A stretch of DNA of 24,908 nt from a virus (IMGVR_UViG_2579778993_000003), one strand, 5' to 3'; positions 4,388 through 19,460 are shown, counted from the stretch's first letter. Notes: generated by a model from the letters alone, not told the origin. A program made the numbers and translations.

Positions 4388-4580
4388 GAATCCTCCCGGC
4401 CGGGATAATATTGTGAGTAAAATGAGGAGCGGGCTGAAGTCCGGAAGTTACAGGACAATGGCAGAAGAGAGACAACAGCCCGCAATACGAAAAAGGCCGC
4501 GCTATTGCGCAGAGTGATTACTGTCGGATATTATTCGCCAGCTGAAATATTACTTCACGTTTTATTGTTTATTCCTTGCC

Positions 4581-4609
4581 GCCCGCGTCTCCCAGCGCGG
4601 GCTTTTTTT
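4581..4609 (+). terminator. Plus-strand intrinsic terminator
   Basis: Stem gcccgcg (4581-4587) pairs with cgcgggc (4596-4602) around an 8-nt loop, followed by T7 (4603-4609). The T-tract is only on the plus strand, implying a plus-strand transcript ends here, antisense to the late operon. Confidence 0.55.
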
Positions 4610-4616
4610 GCCCACA

Positions 4617-4850
4617 AGAAAACCCCTCCGGAGAGGGGCTAAAGCCGCGTATCTGTATCATCATGCACATGGTGCCGGGTGCCTCCCGGTGAGTTCAGCC
4701 CGGTGCCACTAAACCCGCGTCATTCTCGTTTTGATAATCAGAGATTATACCGTCACCAGTCGCCCCTCCGCTCAGGGGGATTCACCATGCGAAATTTTTT
4801 TAACAAATGCCCAGTCTGACAGGCAACTGTCAACTTACTGAATTGTGAGC
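4617..4850. repeat. Direct repeat unit A (~230 bp), degenerate copy of unit B, rich in palindromic hairpins
   Basis: Shares ordered conserved blocks with 5105-5318: aaaa(c/g)ccctccggagaggggct, gcatggtgccgggtgcctcccggtga, cccctccgc.cagggggattcaccatgc, ttttaacaaa and cagtcaac...ctgaattgtgag. The first block is a perfect 6-bp hairpin (CCCCTC cgga GAGGGG, 4623-4638) preceded by an A-run, so it is a minus-strand terminator. Confidence 0.6.
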
Positions 4851-4875
4851 AACATAGCATTTAACGGGGAACCTG

Positions 4876-4903
4876 TTTTCTGCAGTAAAAAGGCCCACCG
4901 GAG
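4876..4903 (-). terminator. Minus-strand intrinsic terminator between the two repeat units
   Basis: Hairpin GGCCCA (4882-4887) / TGGGCC (4898-4903) around a 10-nt loop, with a plus-strand A-run at 4877-4881 giving a T-tract on the minus-strand transcript. Confidence 0.5.
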
Positions 4904-5104
4904 CGGATGGGCCTGGAAGGATAGCGGTCATGTGATGCCGGTTTCCCGGTAACTCAGCACCGGTATCTGAGTCAACGTTTTCTCTACTGGGTCATTTCCG
5001 ATACGCCCTGCCTGCTGACAGGCTTTCATCACATCTGAAAATATAGCACCCTGACTGATACTGTAGTACCTAAGGTTCCAGAAACTGTGATGTATCCGGC
5101 ACAG

Positions 5105-5318
5105 AAAAGCCCCTCCGGAGAGGGGCTGGAGAGTGGCGCTATGTGCCATTGCATGGTGCCGGGTGCCTCCCGGTGAATTCAGTACCAGCACCTGAATCCG
5201 CGATTATCCCATATACCTACTCGCTGATTGCCCCTCCGCACAGGGGGATTCACCATGCCAGTTTCTTTTAACAAACTCCCCGCAAACCAGACAACAGTCA
5301 ACCGCCTGAATTGTGAGA
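5105..5318. repeat. Direct repeat unit B (~215 bp), degenerate copy of unit A
   Basis: Same conserved blocks as unit A, including the CCCCTC cgga GAGGGG hairpin (5110-5125) and the 8-bp inverted pair gcatggtg / caccatgc bracketing a variable ~110-nt core. Confidence 0.6.
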
Positions 5319-5323
5319 CATTT

Positions 5324-5347
5324 AAAAAAAAGCCCGCAAAAGCGAGC
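5324..5347 (-). terminator. Minus-strand terminator-like hairpin directly after the tRNA cluster
   Basis: Plus-strand A8 (5324-5331) then gcccgc aaaa gcgagc (5332-5347); on the minus strand this is an imperfect 6-bp hairpin followed by T8. Confidence 0.45.
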
Positions 5348-5362
5348 CAGTGAAAATAAGTG

Positions 5363-5439
5363 TGGCGCGTTGTACTGGATTCGAACCAGTGACCGATTGC
5401 TTAGAAGGCAATTGCTCTGTCCGGCTGAGCTAACAACGC
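5363..5439 (-). tRNA. tRNA-Arg (anticodon UCU)
   Basis: Manual cloverleaf on the minus strand: acceptor GCGTTGT/ACAACGC, D-stem GCTC/GAGC, anticodon stem ATTGC/GCAAT with loop CTTCTAA, T-arm ACTGG-TTCGAAT-CCAGT, discriminator G and encoded CCA. All stems perfect; 77 nt. Confidence 0.9.
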
Positions 5440-5452
5440 AGGATACAGATAA

Positions 5453-5529
5453 TGGACCGCCTTCGGGGACCCGAACTCCGCGCAACCAGCTTCGAAGGCT
5501 GGCGCTCTTTCCTGATGAGCTAATGGCGG
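5453..5529 (-). tRNA. Putative tRNA-Arg (anticodon UCG), slightly degenerate
   Basis: Cloverleaf fits with D-stem GCTC/GAGC, anticodon stem CCAGC/GCTGG with loop CTTCGAA, and encoded CCA. There is one mismatch in the acceptor stem (A-A), one in the T-stem (A-C), and an atypical T-loop TTCGGGT, so it may be a diverged or pseudo tRNA. Confidence 0.55.
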
Positions 5530-5536
5530 TATGTGA

Positions 5537-5612
5537 TGGTGGCCCTTGCTGGATTTGAACCAGCGACCTGGCGATTATGAGTCGCTCGCTCTCACCACTG
5601 AGCTAAAGGGCC
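5537..5612 (-). tRNA. tRNA with CAU anticodon (Met by anticodon; resembles the Ile2/lysidine-type ileX/ileZ class)
   Basis: Minus-strand sequence GGCCCTTTAGCTCAGTGGTGAGAGCGAGCGACTCATAATCGCCAGGTCGCTGGTTCAAATCCAGCAAGGGCCACCA folds as a 76-nt cloverleaf with one A-C mismatch in the anticodon stem. It closely resembles E. coli ileX as I recall it. Confidence 0.85.
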
Positions 5613-5661
5613 GGGAGCAGAATAATAATGGTGCGTAATTAATTCTGCAATCTCATCCGTT

Positions 5662-6711
5662 TCAAACGATTAAATCCTGAACTTCCCTGACTGTCTGCTC
5701 AAAACGTCCGGTCTCCAGCTCAACACCAATCGCACGACGCCCCAGTGCCATCGCCGCTTTTACCGTTGAACCCGACCCCATGAAAAAATCCGCAACCAGA
5801 TCACCAGGACGGCTACTTGCGCTGATTATCTGCTGCAGCATTTCTGCCGGTTTTTCGCACGGATGTTTCCCGGGATAGAACTGCACCGGTTTATGCGTCC
5901 ACACATCGGTATACGGCACCTGCACCGTCACGCCAAAATACCGCCGCAGATGTTTATATTCACTCAGCAGCTCCGCATACTGCCGGTTCAGTGAGGTATA
6001 CGTATCCACCAGCTGGTGGTGGAGCTTTTCCAGTTCACCACGCCGATGCTTCTCTTCTGCCACCCGGGCAAACAGCGCCTGTAATTTCAGATAATCGCTT
6101 TCATTCGGTAGCTGCCACTGACTGGCACTGAACCAGTGCGACACCATGTTTTTCTTTCCTGTGGCATCTGCAATCTGTTTTGCCGTTATCCCCAAGGCCG
6201 CGCGCGCATCACGAAAGTAAGAAATCAGCGGGGCCATCACATGCTGTTTCAGTGCACTGCCCTTCGCCGCATACCCGGCATCTTTCGGACGATACGGCCC
6301 CTGATAATGTTCCGCGAACAGAATGCGCTCTGTGGCGGGGAAATACGCCCGCAGGCTTTCCTTGTTGCACCCGTTCCAGCGTCCGGACGGCTTCGCCCAG
6401 ATAATATGGTTCAGCACACTGAAGCGTTCACGCATCATGATTTCGATATCAGATGCCAGGCGATGACCACAGAACAGGTAAAGACTTCCGGCAGGTTTCA
6501 GCACCCGCCAGAACTGCGCCAGACACTGGTCCAGCCATTTCAGGTAATCATCGTCGCCCTTCCACTGGTTATCCCAGCCCTCAGGCTTCACTTTAAAGTA
6601 CGGCGGGTCCGTGACTATCAGGTCAACAGAATTTTCGGGTAACGACCGGATAAATTCCAGGCAGTCGGCGTTGATTAACTCACAACTGGATATTTTTACA
6701 GTATTAAGCAT
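5662..6711 (-). CDS. Orphan DNA methyltransferase (amino-MTase, N6-adenine or N4-cytosine; motif order DPPY then FxGxG)
   Basis: 349 aa with catalytic motif IVTDPPYF near the N-terminus and the AdoMet-binding motif FFMGSGST near the C-terminus. No restriction endonuclease gene is adjacent. ATG at 6709-6711. Confidence 0.85.
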   Translation of the reverse strand: MLNTVKISSCELINADCLEFIRSLPENSVDLIVTDPPYFKVKPEGWDNQWKGDDDYLKWLDQCLAQFWRVLKPAGSLYLFCGHRLASDIEIMMRERFSVLNHIIWAKPSGRWNGCNKESLRAYFPATERILFAEHYQGPYRPKDAGYAAKGSALKQHVMAPLISYFRDARAALGITAKQIADATGKKNMVSHWFSASQWQLPNESDYLKLQALFARVAEEKHRRGELEKLHHQLVDTYTSLNRQYAELLSEYKHLRRYFGVTVQVPYTDVWTHKPVQFYPGKHPCEKPAEMLQQIISASSRPGDLVADFFMGSGSTVKAAMALGRRAIGVELETGRFEQTVREVQDLIV

Positions 6712-6804
6712 GGATCATTAAGCCTGTCTCTGATAGGCTCATTCTGCTTTTGCGCAAAGCAGTGGGCCTGAGGTTTGCTTGTGAACCCAACGCATGAGCA
6801 GATG

Positions 6805-6833
6805 GCTGGTGGGTGCCCCTAACACCCACCAGC
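6805..6833 (-). other. Perfect 11-bp stem-loop without U-tract in the 5' region upstream of the methyltransferase gene
   Basis: gctggtgggtg (6805-6815), loop cccctaa, cacccaccagc (6823-6833). No T-run on either side, so it is not a canonical terminator; possibly an RNA processing or stability element or a protein-binding site. Confidence 0.4.
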
Positions 6834-6845
6834 CGCCCATTTACC

Positions 6846-6875
6846 ACAAATAAAAAAGCCTTCACTGCGGAAGGC
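6846..6875 (-). terminator. Minus-strand intrinsic terminator (second terminator downstream of Q)
   Basis: Stem GCCTTC (6858-6863) / GAAGGC (6870-6875) with loop actgcg, preceded on the plus strand by A6 (6852-6857), giving a hairpin plus T-tract on the minus-strand RNA. Confidence 0.5.
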
Positions 6876-7059
6876 GTCTGTAACAACCGAACTGATAGTC
6901 TGCCAGACCCGCCATAACCAGCTGAGTCAGTATTAACTGGCAGCGTTCGCGTGAAAGGTAAGTATTCTGCGCAATCTCCCCGACTGTCGCCGGTTCGGTG
7001 ACGCTTAATTCATTAAACACCACTCTGGCGGTTTCTGTCATATCCTGCTGTTTTAGCAT
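6862..7059 (-). CDS. Hypothetical small protein (about 65 aa) between the Q-proximal terminator and the methyltransferase gene
   Basis: Internal ATG at 7057-7059 preceded by AAGGGA; the track ORF extends to 7146 but lacks support upstream. No motif recognised; low confidence that it is translated. Confidence 0.3.
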   Translation of the reverse strand: MLKQQDMTETARVVFNELSVTEPATVGEIAQNTYLSRERCQLILTQLVMAGLADYQFGCYRRLPQ

Positions 7060-7181
7060 GTCTTTTTCCCTTTTCCGGTTAACGTGACACACCAATAACT
7101 CTTGTCGAAAAAGCCAGCAAGCTGAAAGACAGGTATTCACCGCCACCAGCGCGTTTACTGTACTGACGCGATTTCAGTCAT

Positions 7182-7203
7182 AAAAAACCCGCCAGGCGGC
7201 GGG
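7182..7203 (-). terminator. tR'-like intrinsic terminator about 80 bp downstream of the Q gene
   Basis: On the minus-strand RNA: stem CCCGCC, loop GCCU, stem GGCGGG, then UUUUUU (plus-strand A-run 7182-7187, stems 7188-7193 and 7198-7203). Confidence 0.6.
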
Positions 7204-7252: not shown

Positions 7253-7280
7253 AATTTACCACAGATTCGGGAAAAATCAA
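7253..7280 (-). promoter_or_regulatory. Candidate late promoter (pR'-like) with expected Q-utilisation region
   Basis: On the minus strand, TTGATT (-35, complement of 7275-7280), a 16-nt spacer, then TAAATT (-10, complement of 7253-7258). It lies just downstream of the Q stop (7286-7288) and about 45-60 nt upstream of the terminator at 7182-7203, mirroring the lambda pR'-6S RNA-tR' layout. Confidence 0.4.
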
Positions 7281-7285
7281 CAACA

Positions 7286-8107
7286 CTATCGCGTTACCCT
7301 CTTTAACTGCCGCTCCGCCCATGCCTCTTCAATGTCAAACCGAACCACCAACGTATCGTAAAAGCGTTTCACTGATTTTTTCCACGTATCAAGCGTGATA
7401 GCACTCGTCACTTTGCGTATGGCATTAAATGCCTCCGTTGATGGTAGTCTTTCACAGCCACGACCACCACAACGCTGGCAGTCTCTGATAACAGGCATAC
7501 CACGTTTTACCGACTCTTCACGATGAATGGCAACACCACGCCCACGGCAGTCTTTACAGGCAGTGGAAATCTCCCCCTTCCCTTTACATTCAGGACAAGA
7601 AACTTTCACCACCTCCCGAATTTTTTTCCATTCTTCCCAGTAAGACGGATACACACCTTTCGTACACTTTGCCCATACTGGCGGCTTGCCATCCGGATAC
7701 TGAACCTTGTTTGTAAAAACTTCGCCTTCAATAAATTTTTCCCCTCGGCAACAGGGGCACTGCTTTTTACTCGCTGCGCTGCGGGCATAATCCTCAAAAG
7801 CGTACGAAGCCATAATGCGCATCACTACCGGTTTTATTTCTGCCGGAAGTTTTCTCAACGCCGCCACACGATCGCACCGACTGAGTGCATAATCTGCCAG
7901 TAATTCTGTTGCCCGCGCCCTGTCATTCATACTGATGCCCATTTTCCCCAGGAACGCAGAAAACCCCATCTCAGCCCGATTCTGTGTCATGCCCTGCGCG
8001 GCCATCACATCAGTGATACTCAGCGCATCTTTCGACGTTGAGGCCGATGCATCAGTCAGGCCGGGGGATTTTGGGGAGTAGTATTTCGGTAAATCTTCCA
8101 GTTTCAT
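7286..8107 (-). CDS. Putative late-gene antiterminator Q (Cys-rich, zinc-finger type), 273 aa
   Basis: Directly downstream of rusA with a 4-bp ATGA overlap, and followed by a promoter plus terminator pair. Contains repeated CxxC motifs (CPCCRGEK, CPECKGKGE, CKDCRGRG, CQRCGGRGCE). Family assignment rests on synteny and motifs. Confidence 0.6.
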   Translation of the reverse strand: MKLEDLPKYYSPKSPGLTDASASTSKDALSITDVMAAQGMTQNRAEMGFSAFLGKMGISMNDRARATELLADYALSRCDRVAALRKLPAEIKPVVMRIMASYAFEDYARSAASKKQCPCCRGEKFIEGEVFTNKVQYPDGKPPVWAKCTKGVYPSYWEEWKKIREVVKVSCPECKGKGEISTACKDCRGRGVAIHREESVKRGMPVIRDCQRCGGRGCERLPSTEAFNAIRKVTSAITLDTWKKSVKRFYDTLVVRFDIEEAWAERQLKRVTR

Positions 8108-10231: not shown

Positions 10232-12496
10232 TTATACGGAAACTGGCACACGAGCAGGCAATGGATAGTGAGCCCAGTTATTAGCATTTAAAGCTCTTAC
10301 GCCATCAGCATAAACTTGTGTTTTTCCATCTAATGATTTTAAAGTTACTACAATAGTTACAGGTAAAGGCTCCATTAAGGCCGGTTCATTCGCTCTCAAC
10401 GTTGTTTTAGCTTGAAGAGCCCAGTTACCCGAAGTAATTCCTTTATTAAATGCCTTGCGATGAATTTTTACTGGTGACCACTTTCCACCATGCTCAATTT
10501 GAGCTCTCTCATATCCAGATTGACCGTTTTCTCCTTCCATAGGTACTTTTCCTTTTATAGTATTATTCTCAATTAAGCCAAAACTTAGCTCTACGTTCGC
10601 GCGAACATATTCACTGCCGGCATTAGGGTTCAGTGGTGGTGCATATGCAGCAGTAATTACAATCTCACCTTTAAATTTTCCATTTTGAATAAGTGCCGAT
10701 GGTATGGGATAGTTTTCCTTTCTCCACCTCACCCCAGGAACCAAGAATGTTTGGAAAATCAGAGTAAACCTATCATCACTATCATATAAGGTCTCAATAA
10801 CCTCATTAGGAATTCCCGCTCCCAAATAGCGTCTTTCACTTGGCGAGTAATCAGGAGAAGATAATTGAGCGGAATGAATTAATAATGCTTTAATCAATGA
10901 TGGTGAAACATTAAAGTCTGAATTAGTGGCTATTCTCTGCCATGTATGCGCAGCTAAACTTGCCACAATTGGAGCAGCAAAACTAGTACCAAAATTAGAG
11001 CAAAGCCTATTATCTGGCCCTACGACCTTTAAACTGCTTGCTCCTACATTCCAAGGTCTATGAACCCCACCGCCAGCATGGATTATATCTGGCTTTGGAG
11101 TAAATACAGGCCCAGGGCCACGACGAGTATATGGTGTCGGTGTTCCAATTTCACTTAAAGCATCATTAGCTTCCATATGAGAAACTGAACCAACTGTTAG
11201 TGCTCGGACTGACTCTCCAGGAGAGGAAATTAAATCAGCACCTCCAAGCGGATCAGGATTTGGCCATGTACGTATAGGTTCATCTACATAATTACCTGCA
11301 GCAACTACAAACAAAATACCAAATTTATCGCTGAGCCGATCTAACTCCATCGCAAAATCACTAAACATCTGCTCATTACATGGTCCGCCTCCCAAAGATA
11401 AATTCCAGACTTTTATATCTGGTCTTTTATTTACAGCATCTGCTAGCCTCAGAATTAAATCTGATATATAAGATCCATTTTCATCTAAAGCACAAACATC
11501 ATGGATTTTAGATTTTGTATCAGGAATCCATGGATGATTGTCATTTAAAAAATGAGCGCCTGATATCAATGAAGACACCATAGTCCCATGTTCATAACTC
11601 GTATCAGGAGGAATTACGTATGTTTCCCTACTCACTACCCAAGGAGTAATTGTTGCCGCGATGGGGCTTACCCCAGTGTCAAATACAGCAACAATGGGTA
11701 ATTCTTCTGATGGTACGGGAAAGCTATTTGTTTCAATGCCAACAGAATCACTTACACTAACCGGGAATGCTGAATATTTTGGTTCTGGAATTAACGTTCT
11801 TATACCCGGGTAATCAATGAGAATGTCTAATATATATCTATCATTTGGGGATAAATCCATTATCCTTAATAAGGGAAGACCACATTTTGGTCTAATCTCA
11901 TCATATTTAACTCCGTGTTGTTCTAATATAGAAATAACGTTTTCATAGTTGTTGTAAGTTGCATCTTCACCTGTGTACTCAAATAGTCGTACAAGGATGT
12001 TTGATGATTCAAACAAACCATCAGTGCCTCCTGGAACCTTCCTATTCTCATCCCAAGGTTCAATGCGCTCAATCGCGCTTAGATTAGCCAAAATCGCTTT
12101 AATATTCCGATGTAAAATGACTGACTCTAATACGTCAAAACAGCCGGCATGAGCAGCAACCAACATTTCATCTATTTTGGCATGACCGGCATTTTGCAAT
12201 CCAGCCTCTTGAGCAATTTTGTTCGGCCTATGCGTTTTGGCTATTCCCTGGTCTCTTAATTTGAAAACCAAAGTACCCAAGCTTCCAGGGTACTCTGAAA
12301 GTTTGGATTCTAAATAATGTTTACTGGTTGTTAAATTTCTTACTAGCCCTTGTCTATATTCGGCTGTTACATCAACCAATACCTTTGCCCCACCGCCAGC
12401 GTTTACTATTGCACCCAAGTCACTACTGGAAAAAGGGATTCTTAACATTGGGTTTGTAACTTTTGCGTTACTAAACTGTGTACCCCTTCTGCTCAT
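10232..12496 (-). CDS. Subtilisin-like serine protease (peptidase S8) with extra N- and C-terminal domains, 754 aa; protease component of an IetAS-like two-gene system
   Basis: Catalytic residues in subtilisin order: Asp in VAVFDTGVS, His in YEHGTMVSS, oxyanion Asn in VVAAGNY, Ser in GTSFAAPIVAS. ATG at 12494-12496 with a GGAG/AGGAG SD inside the 3' end of the upstream ATPase gene (26-bp overlap). A+T-rich relative to neighbouring prophage genes. Confidence 0.9.
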   Translation of the reverse strand: MSRRGTQFSNAKVTNPMLRIPFSSSDLGAIVNAGGGAKVLVDVTAEYRQGLVRNLTTSKHYLESKLSEYPGSLGTLVFKLRDQGIAKTHRPNKIAQEAGLQNAGHAKIDEMLVAAHAGCFDVLESVILHRNIKAILANLSAIERIEPWDENRKVPGGTDGLFESSNILVRLFEYTGEDATYNNYENVISILEQHGVKYDEIRPKCGLPLLRIMDLSPNDRYILDILIDYPGIRTLIPEPKYSAFPVSVSDSVGIETNSFPVPSEELPIVAVFDTGVSPIAATITPWVVSRETYVIPPDTSYEHGTMVSSLISGAHFLNDNHPWIPDTKSKIHDVCALDENGSYISDLILRLADAVNKRPDIKVWNLSLGGGPCNEQMFSDFAMELDRLSDKFGILFVVAAGNYVDEPIRTWPNPDPLGGADLISSPGESVRALTVGSVSHMEANDALSEIGTPTPYTRRGPGPVFTPKPDIIHAGGGVHRPWNVGASSLKVVGPDNRLCSNFGTSFAAPIVASLAAHTWQRIATNSDFNVSPSLIKALLIHSAQLSSPDYSPSERRYLGAGIPNEVIETLYDSDDRFTLIFQTFLVPGVRWRKENYPIPSALIQNGKFKGEIVITAAYAPPLNPNAGSEYVRANVELSFGLIENNTIKGKVPMEGENGQSGYERAQIEHGGKWSPVKIHRKAFNKGITSGNWALQAKTTLRANEPALMEPLPVTIVVTLKSLDGKTQVYADGVRALNANNWAHYPLPARVPVSV

Positions 12497-13625
12497 ATGC
12501 TCCTGACTCCTTCAGAATGTTTGAAATTACTCTTGATGTAAGTTTGTACAAATTAGCAAGAACTCTGATAGAAAATAATTTTTTATCTTTAGAACGTAAC
12601 CAACGAATTTCATCTTCGTAAGTGCTTAAATTTACACCTTCCATAAGCGATTGCGCAAGATACAAACGCCTATACAATTTATGGTGATTTATCACACTTG
12701 CACCTTCAATAACTGCATCCCTACGTGCATCCAAGCTCACCTGTTCAATTATTGCTCCGGATAATCCCTCCGATTTTCTTGATAAATCACTTAAATCTAG
12801 ATCGCTACATATCATATTCTTTAAACGATTTTTCCAAATTAACTCTCTCTGATGTATGTCAGGCAGAGGCATTGGAATTCTGAAGCTAAATCGCCTCCAG
12901 ATTGCAGGATCCAGAAGTTGCTCATGGTTAGTTGAGGCAATAATTACCGTATCCTCTGATGCCGCATCCATATTCTGCAATAGTGAAATGACAACTCGCT
13001 GAAGCTCACCTATATCTCTCTCATTACCTCTTGCTCCAGCTAAAGCATCAAATTCGTCTAAAAAAAGCACTGATGGCCTCTGCATTACATAATCGAAAAC
13101 CTGTCTAAGATTTTTGCTGGTTTGTCCCAATAAACTACTAATCAAAGTATCGCAACGCACTGTAAGAAGTGGAAAATCTAAGCGGGTAGCGATGTACTTA
13201 GATAACATAGTCTTACCTGTTCCTGGCTTTCCATACACGAGCATACGACTCGGCAATGCTGCATCAGCTTTAACAAACTCATCATAACGTTGAACATTAG
13301 TGATAAACTCTTCAACACGGGTACTGATTGCTGCAGGCAGAAAAATCTCTGAACTGTCTAATTTAGGATAACTGACATCAACAGTGTTGAGTCGACTATC
13401 AATATCTACCGGTAATGAGCCCAGAGATATCCCACCTCCAGCCCTTTGAGCTCCTGCCAACGCCTGGGGAGCTCTAAGCAACCTTTCTCTTATCATTCTG
13501 GCTTGCTTGACCTCCCCTTTTTGTTCGAGCTTATCTGCCAGCAACCCAGCATAATTACTAGCCATCGAAGCATTTGCCTTTGTTGCACCTTCAATGATTT
13601 TTAACACTTCTGATAAATAATCCAT
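12471..13625 (-). CDS. Classic AAA-family ATPase, 384 aa; ATPase component of an IetAS-like two-gene system
   Basis: Walker A GKPGTGKT, Walker B VLFLDEFD, and a second-region-of-homology-like segment ASTNHEQLLDPAIWRRFSF with sensor Asn and Arg fingers. ATG at 13623-13625 preceded by GGGAG with a 6-nt spacer, after an AT-rich ~190-bp leader. Confidence 0.9.
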   Translation of the reverse strand: MDYLSEVLKIIEGATKANASMASNYAGLLADKLEQKGEVKQARMIRERLLRAPQALAGAQRAGGGISLGSLPVDIDSRLNTVDVSYPKLDSSEIFLPAAISTRVEEFITNVQRYDEFVKADAALPSRMLVYGKPGTGKTMLSKYIATRLDFPLLTVRCDTLISSLLGQTSKNLRQVFDYVMQRPSVLFLDEFDALAGARGNERDIGELQRVVISLLQNMDAASEDTVIIASTNHEQLLDPAIWRRFSFRIPMPLPDIHQRELIWKNRLKNMICSDLDLSDLSRKSEGLSGAIIEQVSLDARRDAVIEGASVINHHKLYRRLYLAQSLMEGVNLSTYEDEIRWLRSKDKKLFSIRVLANLYKLTSRVISNILKESGAYEQKGYTV

Positions 13626-19099: not shown

Positions 19100-19460
19100 T
19101 CTCCACGGGTCAGGTGGAGTGCGTGCGCCGGACACGGGTGAACATCCGGCACTGACAGTTTACTGAAAGGATATGTCCCTGAAAAGTCAGGGCATAACGC
19201 GAAAGCGCACGGCGAAATTGGTCTCTCTGTACGGTGTCGTTAAATTTAGTTCGACCGTGCGCTTCCGGTTGTGGCAATCCGCGAAATGGTGCGGCGGTAA
19301 GTATGGCGGGGGTATTCCTTCCCCCGTTGAGGACACCGGGTTGTCAGGTTGACCATACGCTTAAGTGACAACCCCGCTGCAACGCCCTCTGTTATCAATT
19401 TTCTGGTGACGTTTGGCGGTATCAGTTTTACTCCGTGACTGCTCTGCCGCCCTTTTTAAA
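19100..19460. other. GC-rich, hairpin-dense non-coding region (candidate structured RNA or DNA site)
   Basis: No convincing ORF. Several perfect stems: GCCGGA/TCCGGC nested inside GTCAG/CTGAC (19111-19156), CCCTGA aaag TCAGGG (~19177-19194), GCGCACGG...CCGTGCGC enclosing ~45 nt (~19205-19262), CGGGGG tattcctt CCCCCG (~19307-19326), and GGGTTGTCA-19 nt-TGACAACCC (~19338-19374). Confidence 0.3.

Follow-up and report, generated by a model that had tools for sequence, protein, structure and literature searches.

A stx-Free Lambdoid Prophage of Escherichia coli Carries the ileZ-argN-argO tRNA Cassette with Two Conserved Genes and a Probably Decaying argN

The tRNA Cassette and Its Identity

The viral sequence IMGVR_UViG_2579778993_000003, a stretch of 24,908 nucleotides (nt) here referred to over its full length as the window, carries exactly three tRNA genes according to ARAGORN, all on the minus strand and transcribed in the order CAU, UCG and UCU (ileZ, argN and argO, respectively; Table 1). 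These genes are the known cassette of Shiga toxin (Stx)-type lambdoid phages, carried in this case by a stx-free prophage; taken together, the evidence presented here makes it probable that they are arranged as a unit running from promoter to terminator, in which two tRNAs are under selection and the middle one, argN, is weakened or non-functional.

A cluster of three tRNAs at nt 5363–5612 had been proposed in a preliminary description of the sequence, which was silent on the strand. All three calls were recovered at those coordinates, and all three genes exceed the gathering score of the Rfam tRNA model (RF00005, 29 bits). The terminal CCA is encoded in each of them, and in the RefSeq annotation (PGAP) of an identical sequence they are labelled tRNA-Ile, tRNA-Arg and tRNA-Arg. 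Moreover, the middle element is not scored as a pseudogene only, since RefSeq attaches no pseudogene flag to it and its Rfam score lies above the threshold.

A lambdoid prophage adjoining ompW in Escherichia coli TUM14664 matches the window at 100% identity, with a minus-strand gene order of RusA, Q (PF03589), a 65-aa open reading frame (ORF), an N6/N4 DNA methylase, ileZ-argN-argO, two STnc100 elements, nanS-p (a SASA-family esterase of the nanS-p type), holin and lysozyme. Matches spanning at least 80% of the tRNA cluster, with about 92–94% identity, were obtained in 272 phage records, mostly of Stx2-converting phages, and the names argN, argO and ileZ are annotated in several of these records; the earlier suggestion of a counterpart in the ileZ-argN-argO genes of Stx phages was thus well founded. 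In Stx2a_1447 (AP012536, 933W type) the three genes follow Q and a DNA methylase with order and strand unchanged; ileZ (76/76) and argO (77/77) are identical to the window copies, and identity over the whole cluster is about 92%. A methyltransferase gene is likewise located between Q and the tRNAs in many Stx2 phages. Because of the cluster match, the annotations and this shared methylase-tRNA block, the locus is identified as the Stx-phage tRNA cassette in a stx-free relative. Gene order, homology and location, after Q and ahead of the stx/nanS-p and lysis region, agree with the assignment, and no stx gene, hence no adjacent stxAB, is present in the window. Two differences from the Stx-phage system were recorded: in Stx2a_1447 the tRNAs are followed by stx2AB and then one STnc100, instead of two STnc100 elements and then nanS-p, and the Q protein of the window is of the PF03589 type.

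Of 5426 E. coli genomes, 3437 contain matches to the wider 2.8-kb region (window nt 4400–7200), and in 528 the coverage of this region reaches at least 80%; the cassette is widespread in stx-free prophages. No paper naming ileZ, argN and argO together was found in the literature searched. For tRNA genes downstream of Q in other lambdoid phages, the same role in supplying tRNAs for rare codons has been proposed (PMC3636060). Phages 21, SfI, Sf6 and ST64T carry Asn-GUU/Thr-UGU tRNAs in the same niche, from Q to the lysis genes, whose sequences are unrelated to the window tRNAs.

The Flanking Genes ileZ and argO

The three genes were evaluated for complete pairing of all stems and for the conserved tertiary nucleotides of canonical tRNAs (U8, A14, G18, G19, A21, U33, G53, U54, U55, C56, A58 and C61). 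The CAU tRNA had been described as resembling the Ile2 type, and its sequence bears this out: ileZ shares 68 of its 76 nt with K-12 ileX, the anticodon loop included, has a compensatory change at the 6-67 pair and keeps both acceptor pairs C4-G69 and C5-G68; in alignment it is far less like metT. These two acceptor pairs are reported to let TilS distinguish tRNA-Ile2 from tRNA-Met. By its ileX-like body and both acceptor pairs, ileZ belongs with the Ile2 type, as its PGAP label also indicates, and it would read AUA once TilS converts C34 to lysidine. A single departure from the canonical features was observed, A27·C43 in the anticodon stem, where ileX has G27·U43.

No non-standard pair is present in the Rfam alignment of argO, which has all canonical features, shares its anticodon loop and A20 with K-12 argU, and has G73 as discriminator. 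Recognition by arginyl-tRNA synthetase (ArgRS) depends on A20 in the D loop, C35, and G36 or U36; argO carries A20, C35 and U36 and, with its UCU anticodon, would read AGA and AGG. The host genes ileX and argU are paralogues from which the phage-borne ileZ and argO differ in their stems. The ileZ sequence is identical in 98 of 112 related loci and, over about 65–115 related loci, both genes are almost invariant; this pattern of variation indicates that ileZ and argO are under strong purifying selection.

Structural Lesions of argN in the Window

The preliminary description had reported for the middle gene an A-A mismatch in the acceptor stem, an A-C mismatch in the T stem and the non-canonical T loop TTCGGGT, and was right in every structural detail. 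Indeed, both the Rfam alignment and the sequence place the mismatches at A6·A67 and A52·C62, and the T loop UUCGGGU has G58 in place of the near-universal A, so that argN departs from the canonical features at these three sites; in addition, its discriminator is U73. Compared with argN of the Stx2a phage, which forms a perfect cloverleaf, 7 of 77 positions differ: U67A breaks the 6-67 pair, G52A breaks the 52-62 pair, A58G removes the T54-A58 pair of the T loop, and the other four changes are neutral. The predicted cloverleaf has a free energy of −20.0 kcal/mol, against −28 to −31 kcal/mol in canonical alleles, and lies 7 kcal/mol above the alternative, minimum free energy (MFE) fold. Together, A58G, U63C and U67A create a 5-bp hairpin, UUCGG/CCGAA (argN positions 54–67; window nt 5463–5476, minus strand), that replaces the T arm in the predicted MFE structure and may be a coincidence.

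argN among Its Relatives

An IMG/VR scan anchored on argO retrieved 120 loci. Nucleotide diversity (π), calculated in fixed register from 65 identically spaced loci and, for argO, outside the search anchor, was 0.0028 in ileZ, 0.0125 in argO, 0.085 in argN and 0.13 in the argN-argO spacer; argN thus evolves at about 30 times the rate of ileZ and close to the rate of the spacer. An estimate based on global alignment was inflated by non-homologous loci and is superseded by the fixed-register comparison. The middle slot is occupied by 31 alleles among 80 detected copies, and in about 33 further loci ARAGORN made no call.

Among the 77-nt alleles (91 loci), 45 loci are without defect, 26 have three defects and 11 have four or more, all but one of the three-defect loci (25 of 26) belonging to the clade of the window. 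In some 33 additional loci, the argN slot contains indels or an anticodon arm that has been replaced. The Rfam scores of the argN copies form a descending series of 56 (canonical), 54, 50, 46, 43 (window) and less than 29 bits. At its upper end, 16 distinct intact UCG alleles (43 loci) vary only at seven loop positions and at two stem positions where pairing is preserved, and argN is therefore a genuine tRNA in many phages. At its lower end, descendants of the window clade have decayed further, either by an extra stem mismatch or by a change of CCA to TCA, whereas one locus (L117) is an intermediate with A6·A67 alone. In an alignment of 42 family representatives, the 6-67 and 52-62 pairs are broken only in the window allele; A6-U67 and A58 occur in all other family members, those of other genera included, and G52 in all but the allele of phage Nil3. 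The comparison indicates that the three lesions of the window allele are derived.

Lesions have also arisen independently elsewhere, in a C54/G58/A71A72 clade, in an allele combining a GCG anticodon with a stem mismatch, in a 66-nt deletion form and in poly-G expansions. In loci L114, L075, L116 and L038 the G run of the T stem grows from 5 to about 14 G and the anticodon arm is replaced, which looks like slippage in a decaying gene. The PPompW prophages (H72–H82, from O157-type strains and integrated at ompW) and others have a UUU (Lys) anticodon loop on the scaffold variant that fills the argN slot, and single scaffold alleles with UCU and GCG anticodons were found at L159:1403-1479 and in L188; the scaffold has therefore changed its anticodon on several occasions.

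Functional Status of argN

These comparisons, rather than the verdict of any detection program, suggest that argN of the window has most likely lost part or all of its tRNA function, along a route towards pseudogenisation that is taken repeatedly. The earlier suspicion that the middle tRNA is degenerate and may be decaying is thus favoured by the comparative data, with the addition that its lesions belong to a common allele and are not private to this prophage.

The alternative is that argN is still a working tRNA-Arg(UCG), which would serve CGA and CGG, and that its three changes are tolerated variation. E. coli otherwise covers CGA and CGG only with an ICG tRNA and a minor CCG tRNA, and we know of no UCG isoacceptor in E. 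coli K-12 that corresponds to argN. Several observations weigh in this direction and against decay. The gene is called by ARAGORN, scores 43.4 bits against a threshold of 29 and is labelled by PGAP as tRNA-Arg and not as a pseudogene. Its anticodon arm, D arm, G18G19, U54U55C56 and CCA are intact, and it has A20, C35 and G36, so that, under the established identity rules, it carries the expected arginine identity elements, although U73 is not the usual purine. The exact window allele was found in 246 complete E. coli genome records, the type strain included, where it is annotated as tRNA-Arg, and near-identical copies occur in O157:H7 and O111 strains; the allele has therefore persisted and spread. 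An A·C pair at 51-63 is tolerated in 20 distinct relatives, and A52·C62 by itself may be harmless. G58 is common to three damaged lineages and may be one old polymorphism instead of the product of repeated hits. The diversity of argN is somewhat below that of the spacer, so constraint has been relaxed without its absence being established. The late genes are enriched in CGG and CGA (see below). Moreover, MFE folding is weak evidence for tRNAs and of little use as a test of their quality, because a cloverleaf was not predicted for ileZ and argO either. To these points, as regards the proposed transcription unit, it should be added that the evidence for the candidate promoter of the cassette is its conservation alone.

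We nevertheless consider it unlikely that argN works normally. Its changes hit positions that are invariant in nearly all family members, with only the Nil3 allele also having A52, and one of them hits A58, which is near-universal in tRNAs. The gene scores 12.6 bits below the canonical alleles, its cloverleaf loses about 8–10 kcal/mol, and further-decayed descendants exist in the same clade. In addition, when tRNAs of Rosetta cells were sequenced, only fragments mapped to the related, O157-derived argN5 (tRNA-Arg UCG) on pRARE2 (bioRxiv 10.1101/2025.08.20.671396). The pRARE2 sequence, sought for the argN allele that it carries, was not found in the plasmid collection searched.

According to the reading we prefer, the damaged argN would have been carried along in a successful prophage lineage, being retained because its two neighbours are still selected. 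The portal gene (L001:31501-33761, beyond the window) is frameshifted in the identical TUM14664 prophage, which may therefore be defective; this would fit with relaxed selection on some late functions.

For the window itself, the result is mainly a clean annotation, that is, a known rare-codon cassette in a toxin-free relative of Stx phages, one gene of which is decaying. Annotation and expression tools, such as the commercial plasmid pRARE2, assume that argN-type genes encode a functional tRNA-Arg(UCG). Many natural alleles are lesioned, however, and exactly the lesions of the window are present in between about a quarter and a third of the sampled argN copies, so that the choice of allele matters.

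A Wider Family of argN-Like Scaffolds

When the 5′ end of argN served as the pattern for scanning genomes, each species being represented by one, the argN scaffold, which consists of the acceptor stem CCGCCAY/RTGGCGG, the D and T arms and CCA, was retrieved from many Enterobacteriaceae, in at least 10 genera. In the copies that we designate type B/C (pattern CCGCCAY...RTGGCGG-N-CCA), the place of the anticodon loop is taken by a highly variable loop of 4–6 nt or by an extended arm. They share the acceptor stem, D arm and T arm with argN of the window and, in prophages, the slot after a CAU tRNA and the promoter position. The two differ in what has been kept: the type B/C copies are devoid of a usable anticodon loop and have a conserved scaffold, whereas argN of the window has a canonical anticodon arm and a damaged scaffold.

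The type B form was present in 36 IMG/VR viral contigs, usually in the arrangement Met(CAU)-X-Thr(UGU)-Gly(UCC), some of the contigs being cut off or having no Met, Thr or Gly gene. The spacers between the tRNAs of these clusters are only 2–4 nt long. Three contigs were examined; lysis genes follow the cluster in all of them, and two have a confirmed Q of the same Pfam family preceding it. Examples of type B copies are those at nt 10971-11043 of L263 (reoriented) and at L127:7700-7773; the sets are L122-L241 and L248-L283. Type B copies score under the threshold of the Rfam tRNA model, and none was assigned to any other Rfam family; a megablast search of the GenBank phage collection gave no match, with only argN or Lys-type relatives appearing at lower stringency, and no description of the family was found in the literature searched.

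In the type B scaffold, π was 0.029 (unconditioned 5′ half, viral contigs) and 0.070 (unconditioned 3′ half, genomes), compared with 0.24–0.32 in the loop and with 0.69 in the upstream slot of the genome set, which has diverged to saturation. Covariation was observed at pairs 7-66 and 10-25 among the 42 family representatives, and the contigs L263 and L283, whose flanks are 98–100% identical, differ in the loop. This pattern argues for selection on a tRNA-shaped scaffold that would be unable to decode. Many type B/C copies of other genera sit among ordinary chromosomal genes and not in intact prophages; a role in phages could therefore not be demonstrated from the genome scan by itself, and the prophage context is supplied by the IMG/VR contigs.

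On these grounds, the middle slot could be envisaged as belonging to an undescribed family of tRNA-shaped RNAs, spread over at least 10 genera, whose scaffold is selected for a function independent of the anticodon, for instance as a module for processing the tightly packed tRNA precursor or as a decoy or ligand of a tRNA-binding factor, with argN of E. coli as its decoding-capable or decaying end. We put this forward as a speculative and rather improbable view. If real, the conserved non-decoding relative of argN in other genera would constitute a new small-RNA family.

Applied directly to the window, it would mean that the middle slot encodes an RNA selected for its tRNA-like shape, either as an RNase P/CCA processing module that would release the adjoining tRNAs from a crowded precursor or as a decoy or substrate of a host or phage factor binding tRNAs, and that its anticodon is irrelevant. 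The non-decoding loops in the same slot of other Enterobacteriaceae and of the viral contigs, the sub-threshold Rfam scores, the contrast in diversity between scaffold and loop, the covarying pairs, the loop difference between near-identical contigs and the short spacers would all be consistent with such a role. The lesions of the window allele, however, fall in the acceptor stem, the T stem and the T loop, which are the parts expected to be protected, and leave the anticodon arm canonical; the type B family does not rescue this allele, because the damage is in the scaffold itself. Furthermore, in E. coli prophages this slot evolves fastest within the cassette, the reverse of the type B pattern, the discriminator varies (U, A or C), so that there is no single conserved charging identity, and a useless unit should be cleanly deletable. 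An RNA maintained for its shape is accordingly a highly unlikely explanation for the window gene, for which we retain decay as the preferred one.

Two candidate connections to this family were discarded. The tRNA-Asn annotated downstream of Q in SfI, Sf6 and P21 was considered as a type B member, and the SfI sequence proved unrelated to the scaffold. The scaffold was also considered as an attachment site of a satellite or integrase, but both halves of the gene are conserved, and PMC10111431 has nothing on this cluster.

The core chromosome of E. coli harbours a relative of argN, 81 nt long, under the annotated ORF yahM (L144:6887-6967); in the place of the anticodon arm it has a 7-bp stem closed by a loop of 6 nt. 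Of the 5426 complete E. coli genomes, 5169 contain a single copy, with at least 99% identity in 4822 of them; the motif TTGACA-16-CATAAT is found about 90 nt upstream, and no remnants of neighbouring tRNAs were found around it.

Transcription of the Cassette

The preliminary description had assigned the tRNAs to a Q-dependent late transcript. Their position and strand do fit with the late region downstream of Q, and after induction a Q-modified RNA polymerase would be expected to read through them; the presence of a conserved promoter-like site and of a terminator of their own implies, on the other hand, that Q dependence is not the whole picture. The −10 hexamer of the candidate sigma70 promoter (Table 1) stops 9 nt short of ileZ. 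Even where upstream sequences have diverged or show no other relationship, the two hexamers remain, with the distance between them unchanged. A comparable motif, TTGCRT-17-TATYAT, precedes the first tRNA of the type B clusters. The consensus scan missed the promoter of the cassette because its −35 hexamer matches at only 3 of 6 positions. At the other end, the hairpin and T run located 3′ of argO are kept in related loci.

As to the late transcript, the candidate tR′ lies between the Q stop (nt 7286) and the next ORF, and a tR′ is annotated at the corresponding site of phage Nil3, between q and the tRNA cluster. The candidate pR′ is a guess made on the sequence and was not picked up by the consensus promoter scan. 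A further terminator-like hairpin follows the small ORF (nt 6875-6858, minus strand). Overall, the terminator scan retrieved 13 terminator-like sites on the minus strand, compared with 3.8 expected, an excess that would be typical of a region controlled by antitermination.

Thus, the cassette looks like a self-contained unit from promoter to terminator that could also be traversed by Q-modified polymerase. With a promoter and terminator of its own, it could be transcribed alone besides being reached by Q read-through, and, as an autonomous unit within the late region, it may allow lysogens to gain AGA/AGG and AUA decoding without induction.

Codon Usage and Proposed Role

The supply of tRNAs for rare codons had been proposed as a support for late-gene and cargo expression. 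Codon usage of the prophage was compared with that of 42 genes of a 50-kb core region of K-12. AGA plus AGG are enriched 11-fold in early and 5.5-fold in late genes, AUA 4.6- and 2.8-fold, CGA 1.9- and 2.0-fold, and CGG 2.6- and 4.2-fold, respectively. The enrichment is greater in early and cargo genes than among late ones, apart from CGG, which shows the opposite, and CGA, for which the two sets are about equal. The strongest demand for rare codons comes from int and the defence genes iteA/iteS and not from the late genes. The iteA/iteS pair (anti-phage ATPase and S8 peptidase; nt 10232-13625, minus strand) is located in the replication/nin region and has the highest AGA/AGG/AUA content of the prophage, 56–70 per 1000 codons.

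The enrichment fits with a supply of rare-codon tRNAs, whose benefit is itself inferred; ileZ and argO would provide tRNAs for codons that are rare in E. coli and enriched 3- to 11-fold in the prophage. An alternative role, known by analogy since some phages carry tRNAs resistant to host anticodon nucleases, is the replacement of host tRNAs cleaved or depleted during infection, by nucleases of the colicin D type or other anticodon nucleases, instead of codon matching. That two of the three genes are Arg isoacceptors and that the prophage has the iteA/iteS defence system would be in line with it. Nonetheless, simple supplementation is sufficient to fit the codon enrichment, and ileZ and argO have the same anticodon loop sequences as the host genes ileX and argU and therefore give no sign of changes for nuclease evasion, which makes replacement as the main role of the cassette a very remote prospect.

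Neighbouring Features

The features of the locus are listed in Table 1. The two STnc100-family elements, each ending in a terminator hairpin according to the terminator scan, sit between the tRNA cassette and nanS-p, where Stx phages have stxAB and one STnc100.

Table 1. Annotated and candidate features of the tRNA locus (window coordinates).
Feature	Position (nt)	Strand	Evidence
ileZ, tRNA CAU, Ile2 (lysidine) type, 76 nt with CCA	5537..5612	-	ARAGORN; Rfam 72.5 bits (E 2.4e-14)
argN, tRNA-Arg(UCG), derived, damaged allele, 77 nt	5453..5529	-	ARAGORN; Rfam 43.4 bits (E 2.5e-06)
argO, tRNA-Arg(UCU), intact, 77 nt with CCA	5363..5439	-	ARAGORN; Rfam 70.1 bits (E 1.2e-13)
Candidate sigma70 promoter, −35 TTGCAG (5650-5645), 17-nt spacer, −10 TATTAT (5627-5622)	5622..5650	-	Conservation
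Intrinsic terminator-like hairpin GGCTCGCTTTTGCGGGCT + T run, 15 nt after argO	5323..5348 (hairpin 5348-5331)	-	Terminator scan
DNA methyltransferase gene, between Q and the tRNAs	5662..6711	-	Pfam PF01555, 148 bits; annotation
Candidate tR′ (CCCGCCGCCTGGCGGG + T6), downstream of Q	7180..7203 (hairpin 7203-7188)	-	Terminator scan
Candidate late promoter pR′, TTGATT-16-(TGg)TAAATT	7253..7280	-	Sequence reading only, weak
Q antiterminator gene, 273 aa	7286..8107	-	Pfam PF03589 (Antiterm), 170 bits; annotated antitermination protein
Two STnc100-family elements (5287-5097 and 4819-4610)	4610..5287	-	Rfam RF02076, 136 and 161 bits

In related loci, the anti-small RNAs AsxR and AgvB adjoin STnc100. 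Finally, a full-length DicF antisense RNA (76.7 bits) was detected in the early-left region of the prophage (window nt 19401-19452, plus strand), where it adjoins dicB and ydfD.

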